A stretch of 64,000 nt of DNA, taken from contig CAZJXD010000007.1 of assembly GCA_964549945.1 (NCBI GenBank), positions 33,444 to 97,443 of the forward strand. Reading direction: 5' to 3'. Made by a program: the position numbers and the translations under genes. Origin of the DNA: an uncultured Desulfobacteraceae bacterium. GTDB lineage: Bacteria; Desulfobacterota; DSM-4660; Desulfatiglandales; B25-G16. Under the pieces are notes generated by a model. That model ran no database searches. It saw nothing but the letters and a program-made list of their open reading frames with translations, and was not told where the DNA came from. Shown here piece by piece: positions 1-6,082 of this stretch; within the stretch, counting starts at the first letter, position 1, and each line of letters opens with the position of its first letter.

Positions 1-213
1 CTACCACTTCGAGAATTACCGGATTCATCTATAATCTCACCATACTATGAATTATGCGAAATTTCATATCAACGCTAGTAATATAACCTATATTCTTTTA
101 TTTACAAGATATGGATCCCGGAATCTTTAGGGCTTGCTCTATTTTCCCCAATCCTATATCGTTCTTGCGGGCGGAGTATATATCTAGCCTAGTCCCGAGA
201 ATGTATTTGGGGA

Positions 214-231
214 CCCCTATTTCCATAGGGG
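214..231 (+). terminator. Weak hairpin (CCCCTAT-ttcc-ATAGGGG) followed by a short T-run; possible terminator of an upstream off-window gene
   Basis: 7-bp perfect stem read directly. The T-tract is only about 3 nt, so this is weak. Confidence 0.25.
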
Positions 232-276
232 CTTTATCAAGGGATGAGGGCAGTAGAATTCAGGAGGAGGAATGTT

Positions 277-678
277 ATGGACCGAAGGGAATTGATGACA
301 TTGTTCAACAAACAGCCCAGGATTGGCACGCTCAGTACTGCCAACAAATTAGGGGACGTCAATGTAGCCGTCTTCGGGTCACCTCGGATGATCGATGAAA
401 ACACCGTGGTTATGGGGATTGGCCAAAATCGATCTTTTCGGAACCTTCAAAGAAATCCCAAGGCTGTCTTTATCGTCATGGAGCCAGGAGAAACGGTTAT
501 GGATTGGAAGGGGGCGAGAGTTTATCTTGAGGCAATTGATATGGAAACCAGCGGCGAGTTCTACGAGGAAATCAAGCATGGCATAGCCAAGGCGGCAGGC
601 CAGCAGGCAGCTGATATGATCCACGCAGCTATTCGGTTCAGGATTACAGAGGTACGTCCGATTGTGGCTGAGAGCTAA
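277..678 (+). CDS. Pyridoxamine 5'-phosphate oxidase-like FMN-binding split-barrel protein
   Basis: The GGAGGAGG RBS just upstream of ATG 277 is a better start than the ORF-track ATG at 244. The about 133-aa size and sequence character fit small PNPOx-like flavin-binding proteins. Confidence 0.45.
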   Translation: MDRRELMTLFNKQPRIGTLSTANKLGDVNVAVFGSPRMIDENTVVMGIGQNRSFRNLQRNPKAVFIVMEPGETVMDWKGARVYLEAIDMETSGEFYEEIKHGIAKAAGQQAADMIHAAIRFRITEVRPIVAES

Positions 679-728
679 GTCGAACGAATCGCTCGATTGC
701 GTGTAAAGATCCCTTTTCGAAAAGGGCC

Positions 729-1715
729 TTAAAGGGCGTGTGAAAACAGGGCCTGAGCCACCTTTCTTACCATATCCAAGCCTCTAACCTCTTTTTCAAA
801 AAGAGGGATCTCGCCGCAGACATTATCAAAGGATTGGTACGCTTCTTCCCGATACTTATCCTGCATCTTGACGCGGTTAATGATAAATTGAGCGGAGTCT
901 TTTCCCACTTCAGATTTATCGATGACCTCGTTGATAATGACACCCCCTATGGGGATTCCAAAGTCCTCGAACCAGCCAATGAAGCGTCGGATTACCGCAA
1001 TGGGAAGAGACTCGAGGAGGGTTACAAAGAAAAAGGCGCTTTTTTCCTCATCTGTTAAAATAACCCTCATATGCTCTATTCTATCCTTAAACGAGGTGAG
1101 GTAGTCAAGCAGTGGGTCCTCTTCCTCTGCTACCTTCTTTTTTCTGAAGGATAGGCTCAGCCTCATAGCCGCTGCCTCCTGCCGGCTCTTGTACATCTTA
1201 TCCACCCAGAGGGTATAGACCTTGGACATGCCCAAGAGCCTTCTTGCATTTGCCGTGGGGGCGGTATCAAACACATAAAACTCAAAGGCATTTTCAAATA
1301 TAATATTTATCATGTTCTCGAACATAGCCGACTCTTCAAAGGCGGGGTTCATGGTGGCCGACTCTATAAACTCATCGGCCCTTGTGGGAATATCGGCAAA
1401 CTTGAGAAACCAGCTTATCTTCTCCCTTATCTCGTTCTTTGATTTTTCTATGGTGTCTTTGGTGTCTATCTCCTGTACAAATAGGTTTTGTGTTCCTGGT
1501 ATCAATACGGGTTTCCCAAAGACGTCTTGTTTGAAAAGGTTTGATAGGCTATGCACAGGATTTGTAGAGGCCAGGAGGGTCCTTTTACCCTGCCCTGCCA
1601 TCCACAGTGATACAGCTGCTGCAACAACCGTCTTGCCCACCCCTCCTTTTCCCCCAAAGTAAAGATATCTCATTTGTGGATGTTTCTTAAAAAAATCCTC
1701 CATGGTAGCATTCAT
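729..1715 (-). CDS. ArsA/Get3-family P-loop ATPase, paralog 1 (deviant Walker A GGKGGVGKT; DTAPTANA in place of DTAPTGH)
   Basis: N-terminal KGGVGKT deviant Walker A. DTAPT motif typical of ArsA/TRC40/Get3 ATPases. Single-domain ArsA half, 328 aa. Confidence 0.8.
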   Translation of the reverse strand: MNATMEDFFKKHPQMRYLYFGGKGGVGKTVVAAAVSLWMAGQGKRTLLASTNPVHSLSNLFKQDVFGKPVLIPGTQNLFVQEIDTKDTIEKSKNEIREKISWFLKFADIPTRADEFIESATMNPAFEESAMFENMINIIFENAFEFYVFDTAPTANARRLLGMSKVYTLWVDKMYKSRQEAAAMRLSLSFRKKKVAEEEDPLLDYLTSFKDRIEHMRVILTDEEKSAFFFVTLLESLPIAVIRRFIGWFEDFGIPIGGVIINEVIDKSEVGKDSAQFIINRVKMQDKYREEAYQSFDNVCGEIPLFEKEVRGLDMVRKVAQALFSHAL

Positions 1716-2695
1716 GATGATTTCTCCTCAAACATCACGTGTGCAAGATCTCTGATCACATCAAGCCCTTTTATCTCGGAATCGAATTCCGGAACAGCTG
1801 AAAGCACAGAAGAGCCGAACTTTTCGTCTATCATCTCGAGGGCGCCTGCCTGCATCTCGATCCTGTTTTTGAGATATGTTGGTATGTTATCCTTCAACAA
1901 TTCCCTGTTAATGACTCGATTTACTATATATCCAGAAAGGGGCACCTTATACTTGGCAAAAAGCTGTGCCGCCTTTTCAGTATCCACTATGGTCATCTCT
2001 TCCGGGGTAAGCACGAAGAAAAAGGCGGTCCTTTCAGTATCCGTCATGATCTTGGAGGAACGTCCTATCCGATCCTTTATGTACATCAATTCATTATATA
2101 TCTCGTCTTCCTCTGTCTCCTCCTCCCGCTTCATGGTAGCAATAGCCTTGTCATATTCTTTCATCTGCTCCCTCAGGCTTGTTATCTTTTCCAGCCAGGC
2201 ATCATAGATGGATGCCATGCTCAAATAATAAAGGGCATGGCCCAGGGGAACGAGATCGTAAATGTAGTAGTCGAAACCACCTTTCACCACAATATCAACC
2301 ACTGCATCGAAGATGGCGCTTTCCTCCATGGCCGGCTCAGCTGAGGAGGCCCTTATATAGTCTTCTATTTCCTCGGGGATCTTCTTCATGCCGTACATTG
2401 ATATGATCTTTTGCCGTATCTCCTCCTGATAGTCATGAACCCTCTTATCAGCATCGACCTCACAGGCAAAGAGATTTTCCATTATCTCAACATTTCCCTT
2501 GCCAAAGATATCGCGCTCGAAGATATCGCTCAGCGATGCCTGTGGGTCAACGGAGAAGACGAGCACCCTTTTCCCCTTCTTTGCAAGGTAATAGGCTGTT
2601 GCCGCTGAAAAGGTTGTCTTGCCAAGCCCTCCCTTGCCTCCGTACATAATGTATCTTTTGTTGGGATACTGTTGAAAGAAATCGACAAGGGGCAT
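1712..2695 (-). CDS. ArsA/Get3-family P-loop ATPase, paralog 2 (GGKGGLGKT; DLVPLGHA)
   Basis: Deviant Walker A and a retained GH signature. 4-bp overlap (ATGA) with the downstream paralog. GGAGGAC RBS directly upstream. Confidence 0.8.
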   Translation of the reverse strand: MPLVDFFQQYPNKRYIMYGGKGGLGKTTFSAATAYYLAKKGKRVLVFSVDPQASLSDIFERDIFGKGNVEIMENLFACEVDADKRVHDYQEEIRQKIISMYGMKKIPEEIEDYIRASSAEPAMEESAIFDAVVDIVVKGGFDYYIYDLVPLGHALYYLSMASIYDAWLEKITSLREQMKEYDKAIATMKREEETEEDEIYNELMYIKDRIGRSSKIMTDTERTAFFFVLTPEEMTIVDTEKAAQLFAKYKVPLSGYIVNRVINRELLKDNIPTYLKNRIEMQAGALEMIDEKFGSSVLSAVPEFDSEIKGLDVIRDLAHVMFEEKSS

Positions 2696-2763
2696 AGGTC
2701 CTCCTTTATCGTTTATTGGGTTTCTCGGGTTCTTTTATTAAAACTCTCCGAACTCAAGGAACA

Positions 2764-3039
2764 TTAATACATGCTATCCATGAAATCCTTCTCCCTCAGC
2801 ATCCTGCGCTTCCAGGTAGTGATCTGGGGCACAACATGGGGAAGCAAACGGAGTGAATAGTAAGGCGGAAGTATGGGAATGCCAAGCATGTCGCCCATGG
2901 TGATGAGGATAAAAAGGTGCTCCATGCTGGAGCGTGTTTTCAGGGCATGCCTTGCCATTCCATGGGTTGCCATGCCATACGTGAAATCCCTTACAAAACC
3001 TATTATGCCCCCTGATTTTTTCTTCTTTTTCTCTTCCAT
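2764..3039 (-). CDS. Small hypothetical protein A (91 aa), paralog of 3254..3535; hydrophobic segment plus basic C-terminal motif W-KRRMLREKDF
   Basis: ORF with a clear paralog upstream. The two share ...G.P.L..YY.LRL.P.....W+RRM.RE+DF. Co-oriented with the ArsA-like pair. Confidence 0.5.
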   Translation of the reverse strand: MEEKKKKKSGGIIGFVRDFTYGMATHGMARHALKTRSSMEHLFILITMGDMLGIPILPPYYSLRLLPHVVPQITTWKRRMLREKDFMDSMY

Positions 3040-3066
3040 GACTACGATCTCTTTTAAAATTATTCT

Positions 3067-3084
3067 TGACTACTCACGTAGTCA
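3067..3084. promoter_or_regulatory. Palindrome TGACTAC-tcac-GTAGTCA about 28 bp upstream of small protein A start; candidate operator
   Basis: Perfect 7-bp inverted repeat read directly. An extra GACTAC direct copy lies at the start codon. Confidence 0.35.
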
Positions 3085-3253
3085 GCCTGAAGCTGTTTAG
3101 ACTGAAGGCTTAAAGTGGTCAGAATAGCACTATTGCCGCACTTTGTTGAAGAAACAGTAGCTTCTCGTACCAAACATGGCTTCAAAATGCGCCGTATCCC
3201 CGTTTTTTCCTAACAGTCCTCAGCCTACAACCTATCTACCTGAATAGTTACAA

Positions 3254-3535
3254 TTAATCCCTTATCTGATCAAAGAAATCCCTTTCCCTTACCATCCTCC
3301 TCTTCCATGGCCCAATTCTCTTTACACAGTAAGGAAAAAGTCTCAGATGGTAGTAGTTAAAAAGGCAGGGAACCCCAATTACCTTTCCAACGATGGCTAC
3401 CATAAAAAGATCATCCAAACAACGCTTTTCTTTGTATATCCCCCCTATCAGGTCGTAAAGAAAAAACCCTTTTGCATAATCCTTTATAGCCTGTATCCAG
3501 GGGTGTTTCACTTCCTTATCATGTGAAGAAGACAA
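3254..3535 (-). CDS. Small hypothetical protein B (93 aa), paralog of 2764..3039; C-terminal W-KRRMVRERDF
   Basis: Paralogy with protein A over the C-terminal about 55 residues. Confidence 0.5.
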   Translation of the reverse strand: MSSSHDKEVKHPWIQAIKDYAKGFFLYDLIGGIYKEKRCLDDLFMVAIVGKVIGVPCLFNYYHLRLFPYCVKRIGPWKRRMVRERDFFDQIRD

Positions 3536-3612
3536 GGGGATATATTCCCAGGTTTATAACCCTATCCTGGGTACTATATCCCCTTTTGGAACACTACGTT
3601 AAGGTCCTAATC

Positions 3613-5277
3613 TTATGCTGGTGCCTTTTCCGCCTCAGCAGGGGCCTCTGCCGCTTCCCCTGATTTATATTTCTTGAAGGCCTTCCATCCGTCATAGGCA
3701 AGGATCAGGGCACAGATGATAAGCAGAATGGCTACTGCCGCAGCAAAGAGATTCCCAAACACCTTTTTGCCGGCAAATGCCGCGGGTATCAGCTTGAAAA
3801 AGGAGGTGTAAAACAAGGCGCTCACCGTTGTAGCATACATGAAAAACATCGGGTAGATGGCGATCTTATAGTTCTTCGCCTTCTGCACCAGAAACAGAGT
3901 TACAAGGAGAAGCGCAAAGGATGCCATCAATTGATTGGCGCCGCCAAAAAGTACCCATACGTAAAGCCAGGTTCCTGTTTTTATCAGTACAAAGGTGATT
4001 ATAAGGGCCACAATGGTCGCTACATGGGGGTTCTTTGCAACAGACCATGCATCACCCAGAACCTCGGCGCTCGCGACCTTCATAAAACGGAACACCAGGT
4101 TTATAATGGTAAGGGCGAGTATGATGATCATCATGCCCGCCAGGGCACCGGCATACGACATTGGCAGTCCAAGGGAGGTAATTGCCCCTCCAAGGCCTCC
4201 CACAAAGATGGCTGTAGGATTACTGACCTTTGCAACATAGGCCGCCTTATCGGCGAATGCCGTGGCGCATACTATCACCGCAATGATAGAGATGGTAAAC
4301 TCCGCAAACATTGCCCCTGCTGTGACCGGTCTAGCGTCCAGCTCGTTCTCGAGCTGCCGTGATGTGGCGGTGCTGGATACCAGGCTGTGCCACCCGGAGA
4401 TAGCACCGCAGGCGATAGTGACAAAGAGAAGGGGCCAGAGGGGTCCCATGCCGATACTCCAGCTGGTAAAGGCAGGGAGCGTCATGGGCTTATGGCCGAT
4501 GATTATCCCTATCACACCTGCTATGATCCCGAAGTATACCACGTAAACCGAGGAGTAGTTGTAGGGCTGAATGAAGCGCCATACGGGCAGAATCGAGCTA
4601 AAATAGCCGAATATCAAAACGCATACGAGGATCGTGGTATAGGAAAACTTCATGGTCCAAACCGTGCCTAACCAGATAGAGAAGAAGATCAATACGATAG
4701 CGATGATAGTGGTCGTGACGATGTTCGTTCTCGCCTTATAGATCATATGGCCCACGAGAAATGCCACCCCAATAACCACCAGCAAGGGAAAGGGGAGTAC
4801 TGGATTTCCACTTACCCCCGCGGTAATTACATGCCCAAAGGCCGTAGCAATCAGGAGCAGGTAAAAGTAAATGAAGGTAAGCAGTATCTTCCTTGCCCGG
4901 GGAGATATCAACTTATATCCCAGGGCCCCGAAGGTATCCCCATCGTTCCTTATGGATACCATGGCGCTCGAGAAGTCATGGAGCCACCCGATGAAAAAAA
5001 CGCCCAGTCCTAACCACAGGAGCGCGGGCATCCATCCCCATTGAATTGCCACAATAGGGCCTATGATCGGTGCGGCCCCCGCTATCGAGTTAAGCTGGAA
5101 CCCATAGAGCACATTCTTATTTGCCGGCATAAAGTCAACACCGTCCATATACATCTTGGCCGGGGTCGCTCTCCCAGCATCAACCTCAAACACTCTCCTT
5201 GCCGCCCACCTCGCATATACCCAGTAGCCGATCACAACAATTATTACCCACCATAATAATACCCATAATGAATTCAT
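3613..5277 (-). CDS. cstA: Carbon starvation protein CstA family membrane transporter
   Basis: Long polytopic membrane protein with a CstA-typical N-terminus (WW..IVVIGYWVY.RW) and length. Confidence 0.85.
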   Translation of the reverse strand: MNSLWVLLWWVIIVVIGYWVYARWAARRVFEVDAGRATPAKMYMDGVDFMPANKNVLYGFQLNSIAGAAPIIGPIVAIQWGWMPALLWLGLGVFFIGWLHDFSSAMVSIRNDGDTFGALGYKLISPRARKILLTFIYFYLLLIATAFGHVITAGVSGNPVLPFPLLVVIGVAFLVGHMIYKARTNIVTTTIIAIVLIFFSIWLGTVWTMKFSYTTILVCVLIFGYFSSILPVWRFIQPYNYSSVYVVYFGIIAGVIGIIIGHKPMTLPAFTSWSIGMGPLWPLLFVTIACGAISGWHSLVSSTATSRQLENELDARPVTAGAMFAEFTISIIAVIVCATAFADKAAYVAKVSNPTAIFVGGLGGAITSLGLPMSYAGALAGMMIIILALTIINLVFRFMKVASAEVLGDAWSVAKNPHVATIVALIITFVLIKTGTWLYVWVLFGGANQLMASFALLLVTLFLVQKAKNYKIAIYPMFFMYATTVSALFYTSFFKLIPAAFAGKKVFGNLFAAAVAILLIICALILAYDGWKAFKKYKSGEAAEAPAEAEKAPA

Positions 5278-5551
5278 GGCTTTTGCCCTCCCTTCGCTAA
5301 AGGTTATGTAGCACCTTTATTTAAAGGATAAACTCCCCTTCACCTCCTTTCCGTTGCGATGTAAAAATCCTCATCATTATAGATACATTACATTTCTATA
5401 CTCTTAAGGGGAAAAAATCAAGAATTTTCCCGAAAATCATGAAATGAAAAATGTCAACTCCATTCATTGCCCTAATTCTTAAAAAAGTATGCTACACTTA
5501 TAGGCCTGAGAAGAACCTTCCATGAACCTGGTCATATAAATTACACTCACC

Positions 5552-5992
5552 ATGCTTACCGTATGCCTGGCCGACATCGTTGCCATTATCCACCTCGGCT
5601 ACGTTGTCTTCGTAATAGTGGGGTTCATGTTCATCGTTGCGGGGATTTTCTTTAGGTGGCGGTGGATACGAAACCCCTGGTTTCGATTCCCGCACCTGGC
5701 AGCAATCATCGCGGTCGCTATTGAGGCGATCCTTGGGGTAAATTGCCCCCTCACGGTGCTGGAGTTCAGGCTCAGATGCCCCACCGGTCCCTTTCAGGAG
5801 AGGGTCTCATTCATCGCCAGCCTCGTAGATTCCATTCTCTTCTACGACGCCCCCGCATGGCTATTCACGGTAGTATATACTGGCTTTGCCGTGGCAGTAA
5901 TCATCACCTTCATTATGGCGCCTCCTGAGAGAAAAAGCCGCCATTGTTTGCGCAATAAGGTTTCGGAAACGGATGCTCAACCGAAGGAGTAA
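5552..5992 (+). CDS. Small integral membrane protein, DUF2784-like
   Basis: Four predicted TM segments. The LAD..AI.HLGYV.F...G motif resembles the DUF2784 family. Assignment by recollection only. Confidence 0.45.
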   Translation: MLTVCLADIVAIIHLGYVVFVIVGFMFIVAGIFFRWRWIRNPWFRFPHLAAIIAVAIEAILGVNCPLTVLEFRLRCPTGPFQERVSFIASLVDSILFYDAPAWLFTVVYTGFAVAVIITFIMAPPERKSRHCLRNKVSETDAQPKE

Positions 5993-6082
5993 CATGCCGC
6001 CGGCGCACGCATGTATCCTGGAACCTAATCTGCAATGTATGGGGTTTATTATTGCGGGATCCTTAGTGTTGAGGGGTGACCG

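Follow-up and report, generated by a model that had tools for sequence, protein, structure and literature searches.

Close to the start of the window, that is, the whole stretch of 64,000 nucleotides analysed here from an uncultured Desulfobacteraceae bacterium (GenBank assembly GCA_964549945.1, contig CAZJXD010000007.1, positions 33,444 to 97,443), five co-directional genes on the minus strand are evident from the list of open reading frames (ORFs) and the sequence: a gene for a CstA-family permease, two small ORFs and two ATPase genes, in the order cstA, cstX1, cstX2, A1 and A2. The four genes downstream of cstA had been singled out in an original prediction made from the letters of the DNA, which described two overlapping ArsA/Get3-type ATPase genes preceded on the same strand by two small paralogs, and which took them for a module flanking cstA. 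In the interpretation developed below, they would make up all but the first gene of a cstA-cstX1-cstX2-A1-A2 operon, just past which lies a gene for a thioredoxin-fold protein (T). Coordinates follow the numbering of the window, and the features are the following.

3613-5277, minus strand: cstA, CstA-family permease of 554 amino acids with many transmembrane segments, leading the conserved unit (Pfam CstA, E 5.9e-115)
3254-3535, minus strand: cstX1, ORF of 93 amino acids from TTG, DUF7990 paralogue, likely 85 amino acids from GTG at 3511
3040-3253, minus strand: spacer of 214 nucleotides (nt) between cstX1 and cstX2
2764-3039, minus strand: cstX2, 91 amino acids, canonical DUF7990/CstX protein
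1712-2695, minus strand: ATPase A1, 327 amino acids, single-domain member of the Get3/ArsA family with an intact catalytic set
729-1715, minus strand: ATPase A2, 328 amino acids, paralogue with degenerate catalytic motifs
244-678, plus strand: PNPOx-like gene, between A2 and T
2-28, minus strand: start of the T gene, first nine codons (MNPVILEVV) of a thioredoxin-fold protein of 125 amino acids, the remainder lying beyond the window

Conservation of the operon across phyla

Relatives of the locus were collected in a scan of one genome per species, which gave 588 relatives, and 80 loci were kept and annotated with the window's own proteins. These loci span at least eight phyla, with representatives from Thermodesulfobacteriota, Bacillota, Chloroflexota, Actinomycetota, Nitrospirota, Acidobacteriota, Rokubacteria and WOR-3 as well as an Acetobacteraceae metagenome-assembled genome (MAG). 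In 61 of the 67 loci with enough flanking sequence the permease gene cstA immediately precedes cstX in the same orientation (a 62nd, L075, is masked by a spurious ORF), and in 68 of 70 loci genes of the A1 and A2 types follow downstream in this order, the other two being frameshifted or truncated. Equally, the one-strand order of CstA, DUF7990 in one or two copies, ArsA-like and ArsA-like proteins occurs in three unrelated metagenomic or genomic contexts. The conserved unit consists of cstA, one or two cstX genes, A1 and A2, and cstA belongs to it.

The original prediction had thus rightly recognised a conserved ATPase and small-protein module unrelated to arsenic, and the comparison of gene neighbourhoods that it proposed leads to a conserved arrangement, but it had left out cstA, which it regarded as a passive flank and which turns out to be the first gene of the unit; that the module is flanked by cstA and by a gene for a flavin-binding (PNPOx-like) protein is correct. 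The suggestion that a duplicated ATPase is matched to a duplicated small partner could not be upheld. Two DUF7990 genes are present in 43 of the 80 loci and a single one in the remaining 37, and because the A1 and A2 pair is almost invariably present, the duplication of the small protein is uncoupled from the ATPase pair and lineage-specific.

Median identity to orthologues in distant phyla amounts to 74% for CstX2, 68% for A1, 63% for A2 and 49% for CstA, and the values of 63-74% across phyla for the former three fit what might be expected of a tightly interacting machine. The CstA of the window is 28% identical (E 1e-61) to the pyruvate transporter CstA of E. coli, which is about 150 amino acids longer. 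For CstA, CstX and T, sequence searches of the PDB produced no meaningful match, and no solved structure of CstA or CstX is available.

Two diverged ATPases

Both ATPases match the Pfam family ArsA_ATPase (PF02374; A1, E 8e-70, 236 bits; A2, E 2.5e-64, 218 bits; cut-off 24.3) and the model TIGR00345 (GET3_arsA_TRC40; 227 and 210 bits, both over the cut-off of 135), their mutual identity is 33% (E 5e-61), and their genes overlap by 4 bp as predicted, the ATGA at 1712-1715 being common to both. The P-loop GGKGGLGKTT, switch I SVDPQAS and switch II YDLVPLGH of A1 are at least 90% conserved in 74 A1 orthologues. A2 combines an intact P-loop with the switch I STNPVHS and the switch II FDTAPTAN, and 67 orthologues show a conservation of at least 90% for both STNPVHS and DTAPTAN; the catalytic asymmetry of A1 and A2 is ancient. 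Relative to the switch II DTAPTGH of the family, A1 keeps the histidine and A2 is devoid of the Gly-His; the loss of the histidine in one ATPase had been noticed at the outset, while a second change in A2, an asparagine for the switch-I aspartate, had been missed. In a motif alignment this asparagine is placed opposite the catalytic switch-I aspartate of Get3. The aspartate is presumably residue 57 in yeast Get3, going by the motif STDPAHN. In yeast Get3 the substitution D57N traps ATP in a bound, unhydrolysed state (PMC12506534), and because of this precedent, the conserved asparagine for aspartate and the intact P-loop, A2 probably binds ATP without hydrolysing it.

With one cysteine apiece, which is not conserved, A1 and A2 possess therefore neither a metalloid site nor a CXXC motif, and the As(III)-binding cysteines of ArsA, which the original prediction had put up for checking, are absent. 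Among solved structures, the best matches of A1 are Get3 proteins of archaea (M. jannaschii 3ug6, 1.2e-62; 3zq6, 2.6e-55), with which A1 aligns from end to end including a helical insert that E. coli ArsA lacks. The A1 insert, aligned to the methionine-rich lid of M. jannaschii Get3, is four residues shorter and highly charged (KEYDKAIATMKREEETEED), and the archaeal CDFC and CEFC are replaced in A1 by the cysteine-free DNIPTYLKN. With the ArsA equivalog model TIGR04291 the two proteins reach 102 bits (A1) and 92 bits (A2) versus a cut-off of 650, and they are single-domain proteins as opposed to the two-domain ArsA of about 580 amino acids. A1 and A2 are neither classical ArsA nor classical Get3.

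Homologues in the database clusters of A2 are publicly annotated as 'arsenite-transporting ATPase' or 'arsenic transporter', which is unsupported by motifs, model cut-offs and context. Membership in the BagA/BagB families (NF053622, NF053621) was considered and rejected, as just 25-51 bits were obtained versus cut-offs of 400 and 521.

The small proteins CstX1 and CstX2

The two small paralogs encoded upstream of the ATPases share 36% identity over 78 residues (E 6e-21) as well as the basic motif YY.LRL.P...WKRRM.RE.DF, in agreement with the original prediction. The GTG at 3511 is the preferred start of cstX1, since most CstX1 homologues have a length of 85 amino acids. A Pfam scan of the two window proteins themselves, with a copy of Pfam that does not include the PF25952 model, gave no match; database relatives 99% and 94% identical to them carry a precomputed match to PF25952 (DUF7990). 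CstX1 is represented by 28 database clusters, mostly of 85 amino acids and every one with PF25952, and CstX2, equally with PF25952, by 4377 clusters at 90% identity, an exhaustive hidden Markov model search yielding 437 clusters of the CstX2 family at the 50% level. In loci of distant phyla the upstream CstX copy has an identity to CstX1 in the range, not the median, of 30-40%, and the 74% of CstX2 is the highest median in the module: CstX1 is a fast-evolving paralogue, while CstX2 is the module's most conserved protein.

CstX2 possesses one moderately hydrophobic segment between basic flanks (1.51 in a Kyte-Doolittle window of 19 residues), and the corresponding segment of CstX1 reaches 1.8, with both values borderline. 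Because the hydrophobicity is borderline and both flanks are basic, CstX is unlikely to be a simple N-in/C-out tail anchor. CstX2 is conserved over its full length, including glycine, aspartate and proline within the hydrophobic segment (EHLFILITMGDMLGVPILPPYYSLRLLPYVVPQI.TWKRRMLRE), and therefore its conservation looks more like that of a candidate protein-contact surface than that of a plain membrane anchor. Within the hydrophobic segment a Gly-Asp is invariant in CstX2-type proteins (position 50 of CstX2), and the same alignment column of Desulfobacterota CstX1-type proteins shows glycine followed by lysine, arginine or asparagine; such charge complementarity would suit a heterodimer of CstX1 and CstX2.

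A histidine-rich tail, HEH.LHG(L/M/V), closes the upstream CstX copy in loci of Chloroflexota and Actinomycetota (L081:6668-6967, L070:6382-6855 and protein P0209); it is present in 14 of 148 family representatives and might be involved in metal binding. An assignment to the cory-CC-star proteins (NF041419) was equally considered. Scores of 36 and 41 bits fall below the cut-off of 80 and neither protein ends in Cys-Cys (the C-termini are ...DSMY and ...QIRD), so that CstX1 and CstX2 are not members, and a C-terminal Cys-Cys was found in none of 356 family proteins examined; CstX is at most a distant relative of cory-CC-star proteins. Homology of DUF7990 to E. coli YbdD (PF04328) was likewise rejected, with an hhalign probability of 0.7% and no Pfam hit, the position downstream of cstA being the only feature shared.

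Gene fusions and a thioredoxin-fold partner

Several fusion proteins link the components of the module. P0209 is a fusion of CstX with CstX, and in P0245 the C-terminal part of CstA (positions 477-560 of the Pfam CstA model) is fused to CstX. In three further cluster representatives (P0217, P0256 and P0295) a thioredoxin-like domain of about 100 amino acids is fused to CstX, and this domain also stands alone as the T protein of about 125 amino acids, which belongs to no Pfam family. T adjoins the module in 25 of the 80 loci, either upstream of cstA or just after A2 (for example L015:9583-9957 and L081:3533-3913), and in the window the nine T codons (28-2, minus strand) match P0363. A CxxC motif after the first strand of T is common, albeit not universal, being absent in L010, L011 and L023. 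By adjacency and fusion, T would appear to be a fifth partner of the module.

Neighbouring features

As stated in the original prediction, no ars genes accompany the ATPases: none was found in the near neighbourhood, nor in the 7 kb past the window start, which are covered by L089, a contig from the same sample that carries the C-terminus of A2 along with the PNPOx-like gene, T, patatin, MgtE, Thi4 and IleRS. The PNPOx-like gene does not belong to the conserved module; it is intact in the window and seems shortened in the closest relative L015 (L015:9020-9600).

The spacer between cstX1 and cstX2 occurs as a single copy in the window and is carried by the same-species contigs L086-L088; none of the other loci was found to have it, and for the closest relatives among them the ORF coordinates imply a gap between the two genes of just about 30 nt (L015) and of at most 44 nt (L008). 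An Rfam scan of window positions 1-6000 gave no match, spacer included, and a scan for promoters and terminators gave signals no more frequent than by chance. Upstream of the module in locus L070 lies a large opposite-strand ORF which by eye resembles a GAF-type histidine kinase. In seven to eight high-GC loci an opposite-strand ORF of about 218 amino acids, which has a single transmembrane segment at its N-terminus and no match in Pfam, is inserted between cstA and cstX (for example L081:5923-6579 and L078:5809-6585, minus strand); it recalls the archaeal 'CstY' of Castillo & Saier (2010) by size and topology alone.

Relation to described systems

The arrangement is of a described operon type, and the small partners are members of a named family, DUF7990. 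In a comparative analysis of the CstA family (TC 2.A.114), 26 operons that link cstA to an arsA homologue were reported, 24 of them with a gene termed cstX for a protein of about 90 amino acids with one predicted transmembrane segment, and with single-domain ATPases of about 330 amino acids (Castillo & Saier, 2010; PMC2963123). Adjacent ATPase pairs, 25-31% identical, were noted in two organisms, one of them abbreviated "Sth", as were paralogous CstX pairs in two organisms; ars and cst genes were never found in one operon, with neither arsR nor other ars genes in cst operons, and CstA, CstX and the ATPases were seen to co-evolve; CstA was suggested to be energised by the ATPase, with CstX acting as the linker (PMC2963123). 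Among the loci collected here, L004 and L034 (Symbiobacterium thermophilum MAG) carry CstA-DUF7990-ArsA-ArsA. "Sth" is taken here to stand for Symbiobacterium thermophilum. Because these loci match the S. thermophilum case of Castillo & Saier, CstX is identified with DUF7990.

The locus is a further cstA-cstX-arsA-homologue operon, of a type known since 2010 through comparative genomics alone, with the same gene set, the same sizes and the same lack of ars genes as the operons of that study; the latter amounted to 26 cases, compared with 588 genomic matches in at least eight phyla here. A literature search on DUF7990, cory-CC-star and CstX returned only Castillo & Saier (2010), and no later paper taking up CstX was found in the literature covered. 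New with respect to that study are the identity of CstX with DUF7990, the division of labour between A1 and A2, the wider spread, the conservation of CstX2, the T partner and the CstX fusions.

Among characterised systems, the ArsA-ArsB pump equally joins in one operon an ATPase of the Get3/ArsA fold with two homologous halves and a secondary carrier. ArsD is a small thioredoxin-fold partner of ArsA, and T is likewise of thioredoxin fold; neither a sequence match nor a specific structural relationship connecting T with ArsD was detected. In contrast to ArsA-ArsB, the halves are here encoded by separate genes, one half is catalytically degenerate, the small adaptor CstX is added, metalloid-binding cysteines are absent, the carrier CstA is unrelated to ArsB and the ArsA equivalog cut-off is failed. 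With archaeal Get3 (3ug6/3ug7 of M. jannaschii, 3zq6 of M. thermautotrophicus) and eukaryotic Get3/TRC40 the deviant Walker A, switch I and switch II are shared, whereas A1 and A2 are devoid of CXXC and are encoded together with a permease, and the insert, as seen in A1, is charged rather than methionine-rich; moreover, Get3 is a homodimer, while here a heterodimer of diverged paralogues would be formed.

Two adjacent paralogous genes for Get3-like ATPases in one operon are also known as mycobacterial BagA/BagB (Rv3679/Rv3680), which PMC10597346 links to protection from the toxicity of glycerol and of nitric oxide. A small protein is encoded directly downstream of a CstA-family permease in the E. 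coli pairs CstA-YbdD and BtsT-YjiX (PF04328) as well; however, no ATPases are encoded at the E. coli cstA and btsT loci, and YbdD has no detectable homology to DUF7990. E. coli CstA and BtsT are pyruvate transporters by the account given in PMC7730263, and YbdD is required for the CstA-dependent uptake of pyruvate (PMC5847655).

Proposed mechanism and alternatives

From the gene order, conservation, motifs and fusions described above we infer, with a probability of about 0.5, that the products of the operon assemble into a transport complex in which CstA is coupled to or gated by ATP and CstX serves as an adaptor. CstA would be the membrane permease, its E. coli relatives importing pyruvate and requiring a small downstream partner. 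A1 and A2 would form a Get3/ArsA-like heterodimer on the cytoplasmic face, in which A1 is predicted to hydrolyse ATP and A2 only to bind it, and the CstX adaptors, with a single hydrophobic helix plus a basic, conserved helix at the C-terminus, would tether the ATPase dimer to CstA. Binding and hydrolysis of ATP might thereby drive or gate the transport through CstA, in functional analogy to the action of ArsA on ArsB; according to PMC12415280, ArsA enhances the efflux via this carrier. The model follows the proposal of Castillo & Saier and is the best-supported reading of synteny, co-evolution, fusions, complementary motifs and the precedents of YbdD and ArsA. A tentative and as a whole doubtful extension would see in the operon a complete non-metal counterpart of ArsD-ArsA-ArsB, in which a split Get3-type ATPase with one hydrolysis-dead subunit, docked by CstX on CstA and assisted by T, acts as an ATP-driven or ATP-gated scavenging pump for small carbon compounds; a variant of it would make A1/A2 the first Get3 of bacteria for which both a dedicated client, CstX, and a membrane receptor, CstA, have been identified.

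Several observations weigh against such a transport complex. Characterised CstA-family members are described as H+ symporters needing no ATPase (PMC7730263); ArsA drives the export of a ligand that it binds and no ligand site is evident in A1/A2, with A1 closer to archaeal Get3 than to ArsA. CstA is the least conserved component, and adjacent cstA is missing in about 9% of the loci, for example in Thermoflexus L037, L067, L070 and L082, which carry cstX-cstX-A1-A2; the CstX/ATPase core may therefore use other partners. In L001 a second DUF7990 gene is located just upstream of a CitMHS/TrkA_C transporter gene (L001:9677-12233), and the CstX family may therefore also serve other permeases. The fusion protein P0245 is known from a single cluster representative and might be a frameshift artefact, and an AlphaFold2 (AF2) model of CstX2 alone, with three helices and a predicted local distance difference test score (pLDDT) of 62, is of low confidence.

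The Get3 resemblance of A1 can alternatively be read in terms of protein targeting, tail-anchor targeting having been one example in the original prediction, with A1/A2 as a chaperone that shields the hydrophobic segments of CstX, or of CstA, once they are translated and delivers them to the membrane in an ATP-dependent cycle of capture and release, CstA being the destination or receptor. A1 has its nearest solved relatives in archaeal Get3, its alignment with the latter runs without large gaps across the region missing from E. coli ArsA, and archaeal Get3 homologues without CXXC bind tail-anchored proteins, similar bacterial homologues being predicted to bind hydrophobic segments (PMC6593721). 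The sole hydrophobic segment of CstX ends about 32 residues before the C-terminus and would therefore exit late from the ribosome, and a subunit naturally resembling D57N would favour a long-lived closed, client-holding state. Nevertheless, targeting is judged unlikely: the strongly basic and highly conserved flanks (WKRRMLRE) are ill-suited to a translocated tail, the shortened insert of A1 is highly charged where the lid of M. jannaschii Get3 is rich in methionine, a Get1/Get2-like receptor gene is not among the conserved neighbours, two ATPase genes for the insertion of one protein of 90 amino acids are unparsimonious, and the whole-length conservation of CstX exceeds that expected of a simple membrane anchor. 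Somewhat less probable still is a purely regulatory gate, in which the heterodimer senses the nucleotide or energy state, possibly redox via T, and switches a proton-driven CstA through CstX without supplying energy. The symporter description cited above, the one degenerate ATP-locking site, which is typical of switch-like SIMIBI dimers, and a thioredoxin-fold protein, often with CxxC, linked or fused to CstX would agree with it, but the strict conservation of the catalytic residues of A1 argues for real turnover and the CxxC of T is lost in several orthologues.

That the ATPases and small proteins form an independent module, acting as a ParA-like adaptor, as the original prediction had offered as an example, or as a general chaperone next to cstA by coincidence, is very unlikely; the four loci without adjacent cstA named above would be compatible with it, whereas cstA stands directly upstream on the same strand in the large majority of loci in many phyla, a CstA-CstX fusion exists and ParA/MinD models score far under the Get3/ArsA models. 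A split ArsA that confers resistance to arsenite or antimonite through an ars transporter elsewhere in the genome is hardly credible in spite of the annotation of homologues as 'arsenite-transporting ATPase' and the PF02374 matches, given the 92-102 bits against the ArsA equivalog cut-off, the single non-conserved cysteine per protein in place of a metalloid-binding triad, the lack of ars genes nearby, in the 7 kb past the window start and among the conserved neighbours, and the strict separation of ars and cst operons (PMC2963123). Arsenic resistance and ParA-like roles are effectively excluded, and the ATP-coupled or ATP-gated CstA complex is retained as the preferred reading.

Implications

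The ATPases of this widespread module are routinely mislabelled as "arsenite-transporting ATPase" or "arsenic transporter" in databases. The idea of an ATPase-energised CstA dates from 2010, and the value of the present analysis lies in refinement and testability rather than in discovery: a subunit naturally resembling D57N, the extreme conservation of CstX2, the T partner and the fusions make the hypothesis accessible to testing. If true, the CstA complex would constitute a second, non-arsenic case of a Get3/ArsA-fold ATPase that renders a secondary carrier ATP-dependent, and a concrete role would be provided for many bacterial "Get3-like" proteins, the role of which is listed as unknown in reviews. 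The module has spread widely through anaerobic and subsurface lineages, among them Thermodesulfobacteriota, Bacillota, Chloroflexota, Actinomycetota and Nitrospirota, and high-affinity uptake of pyruvate or related compounds could matter there for survival of starvation and for syntrophy.

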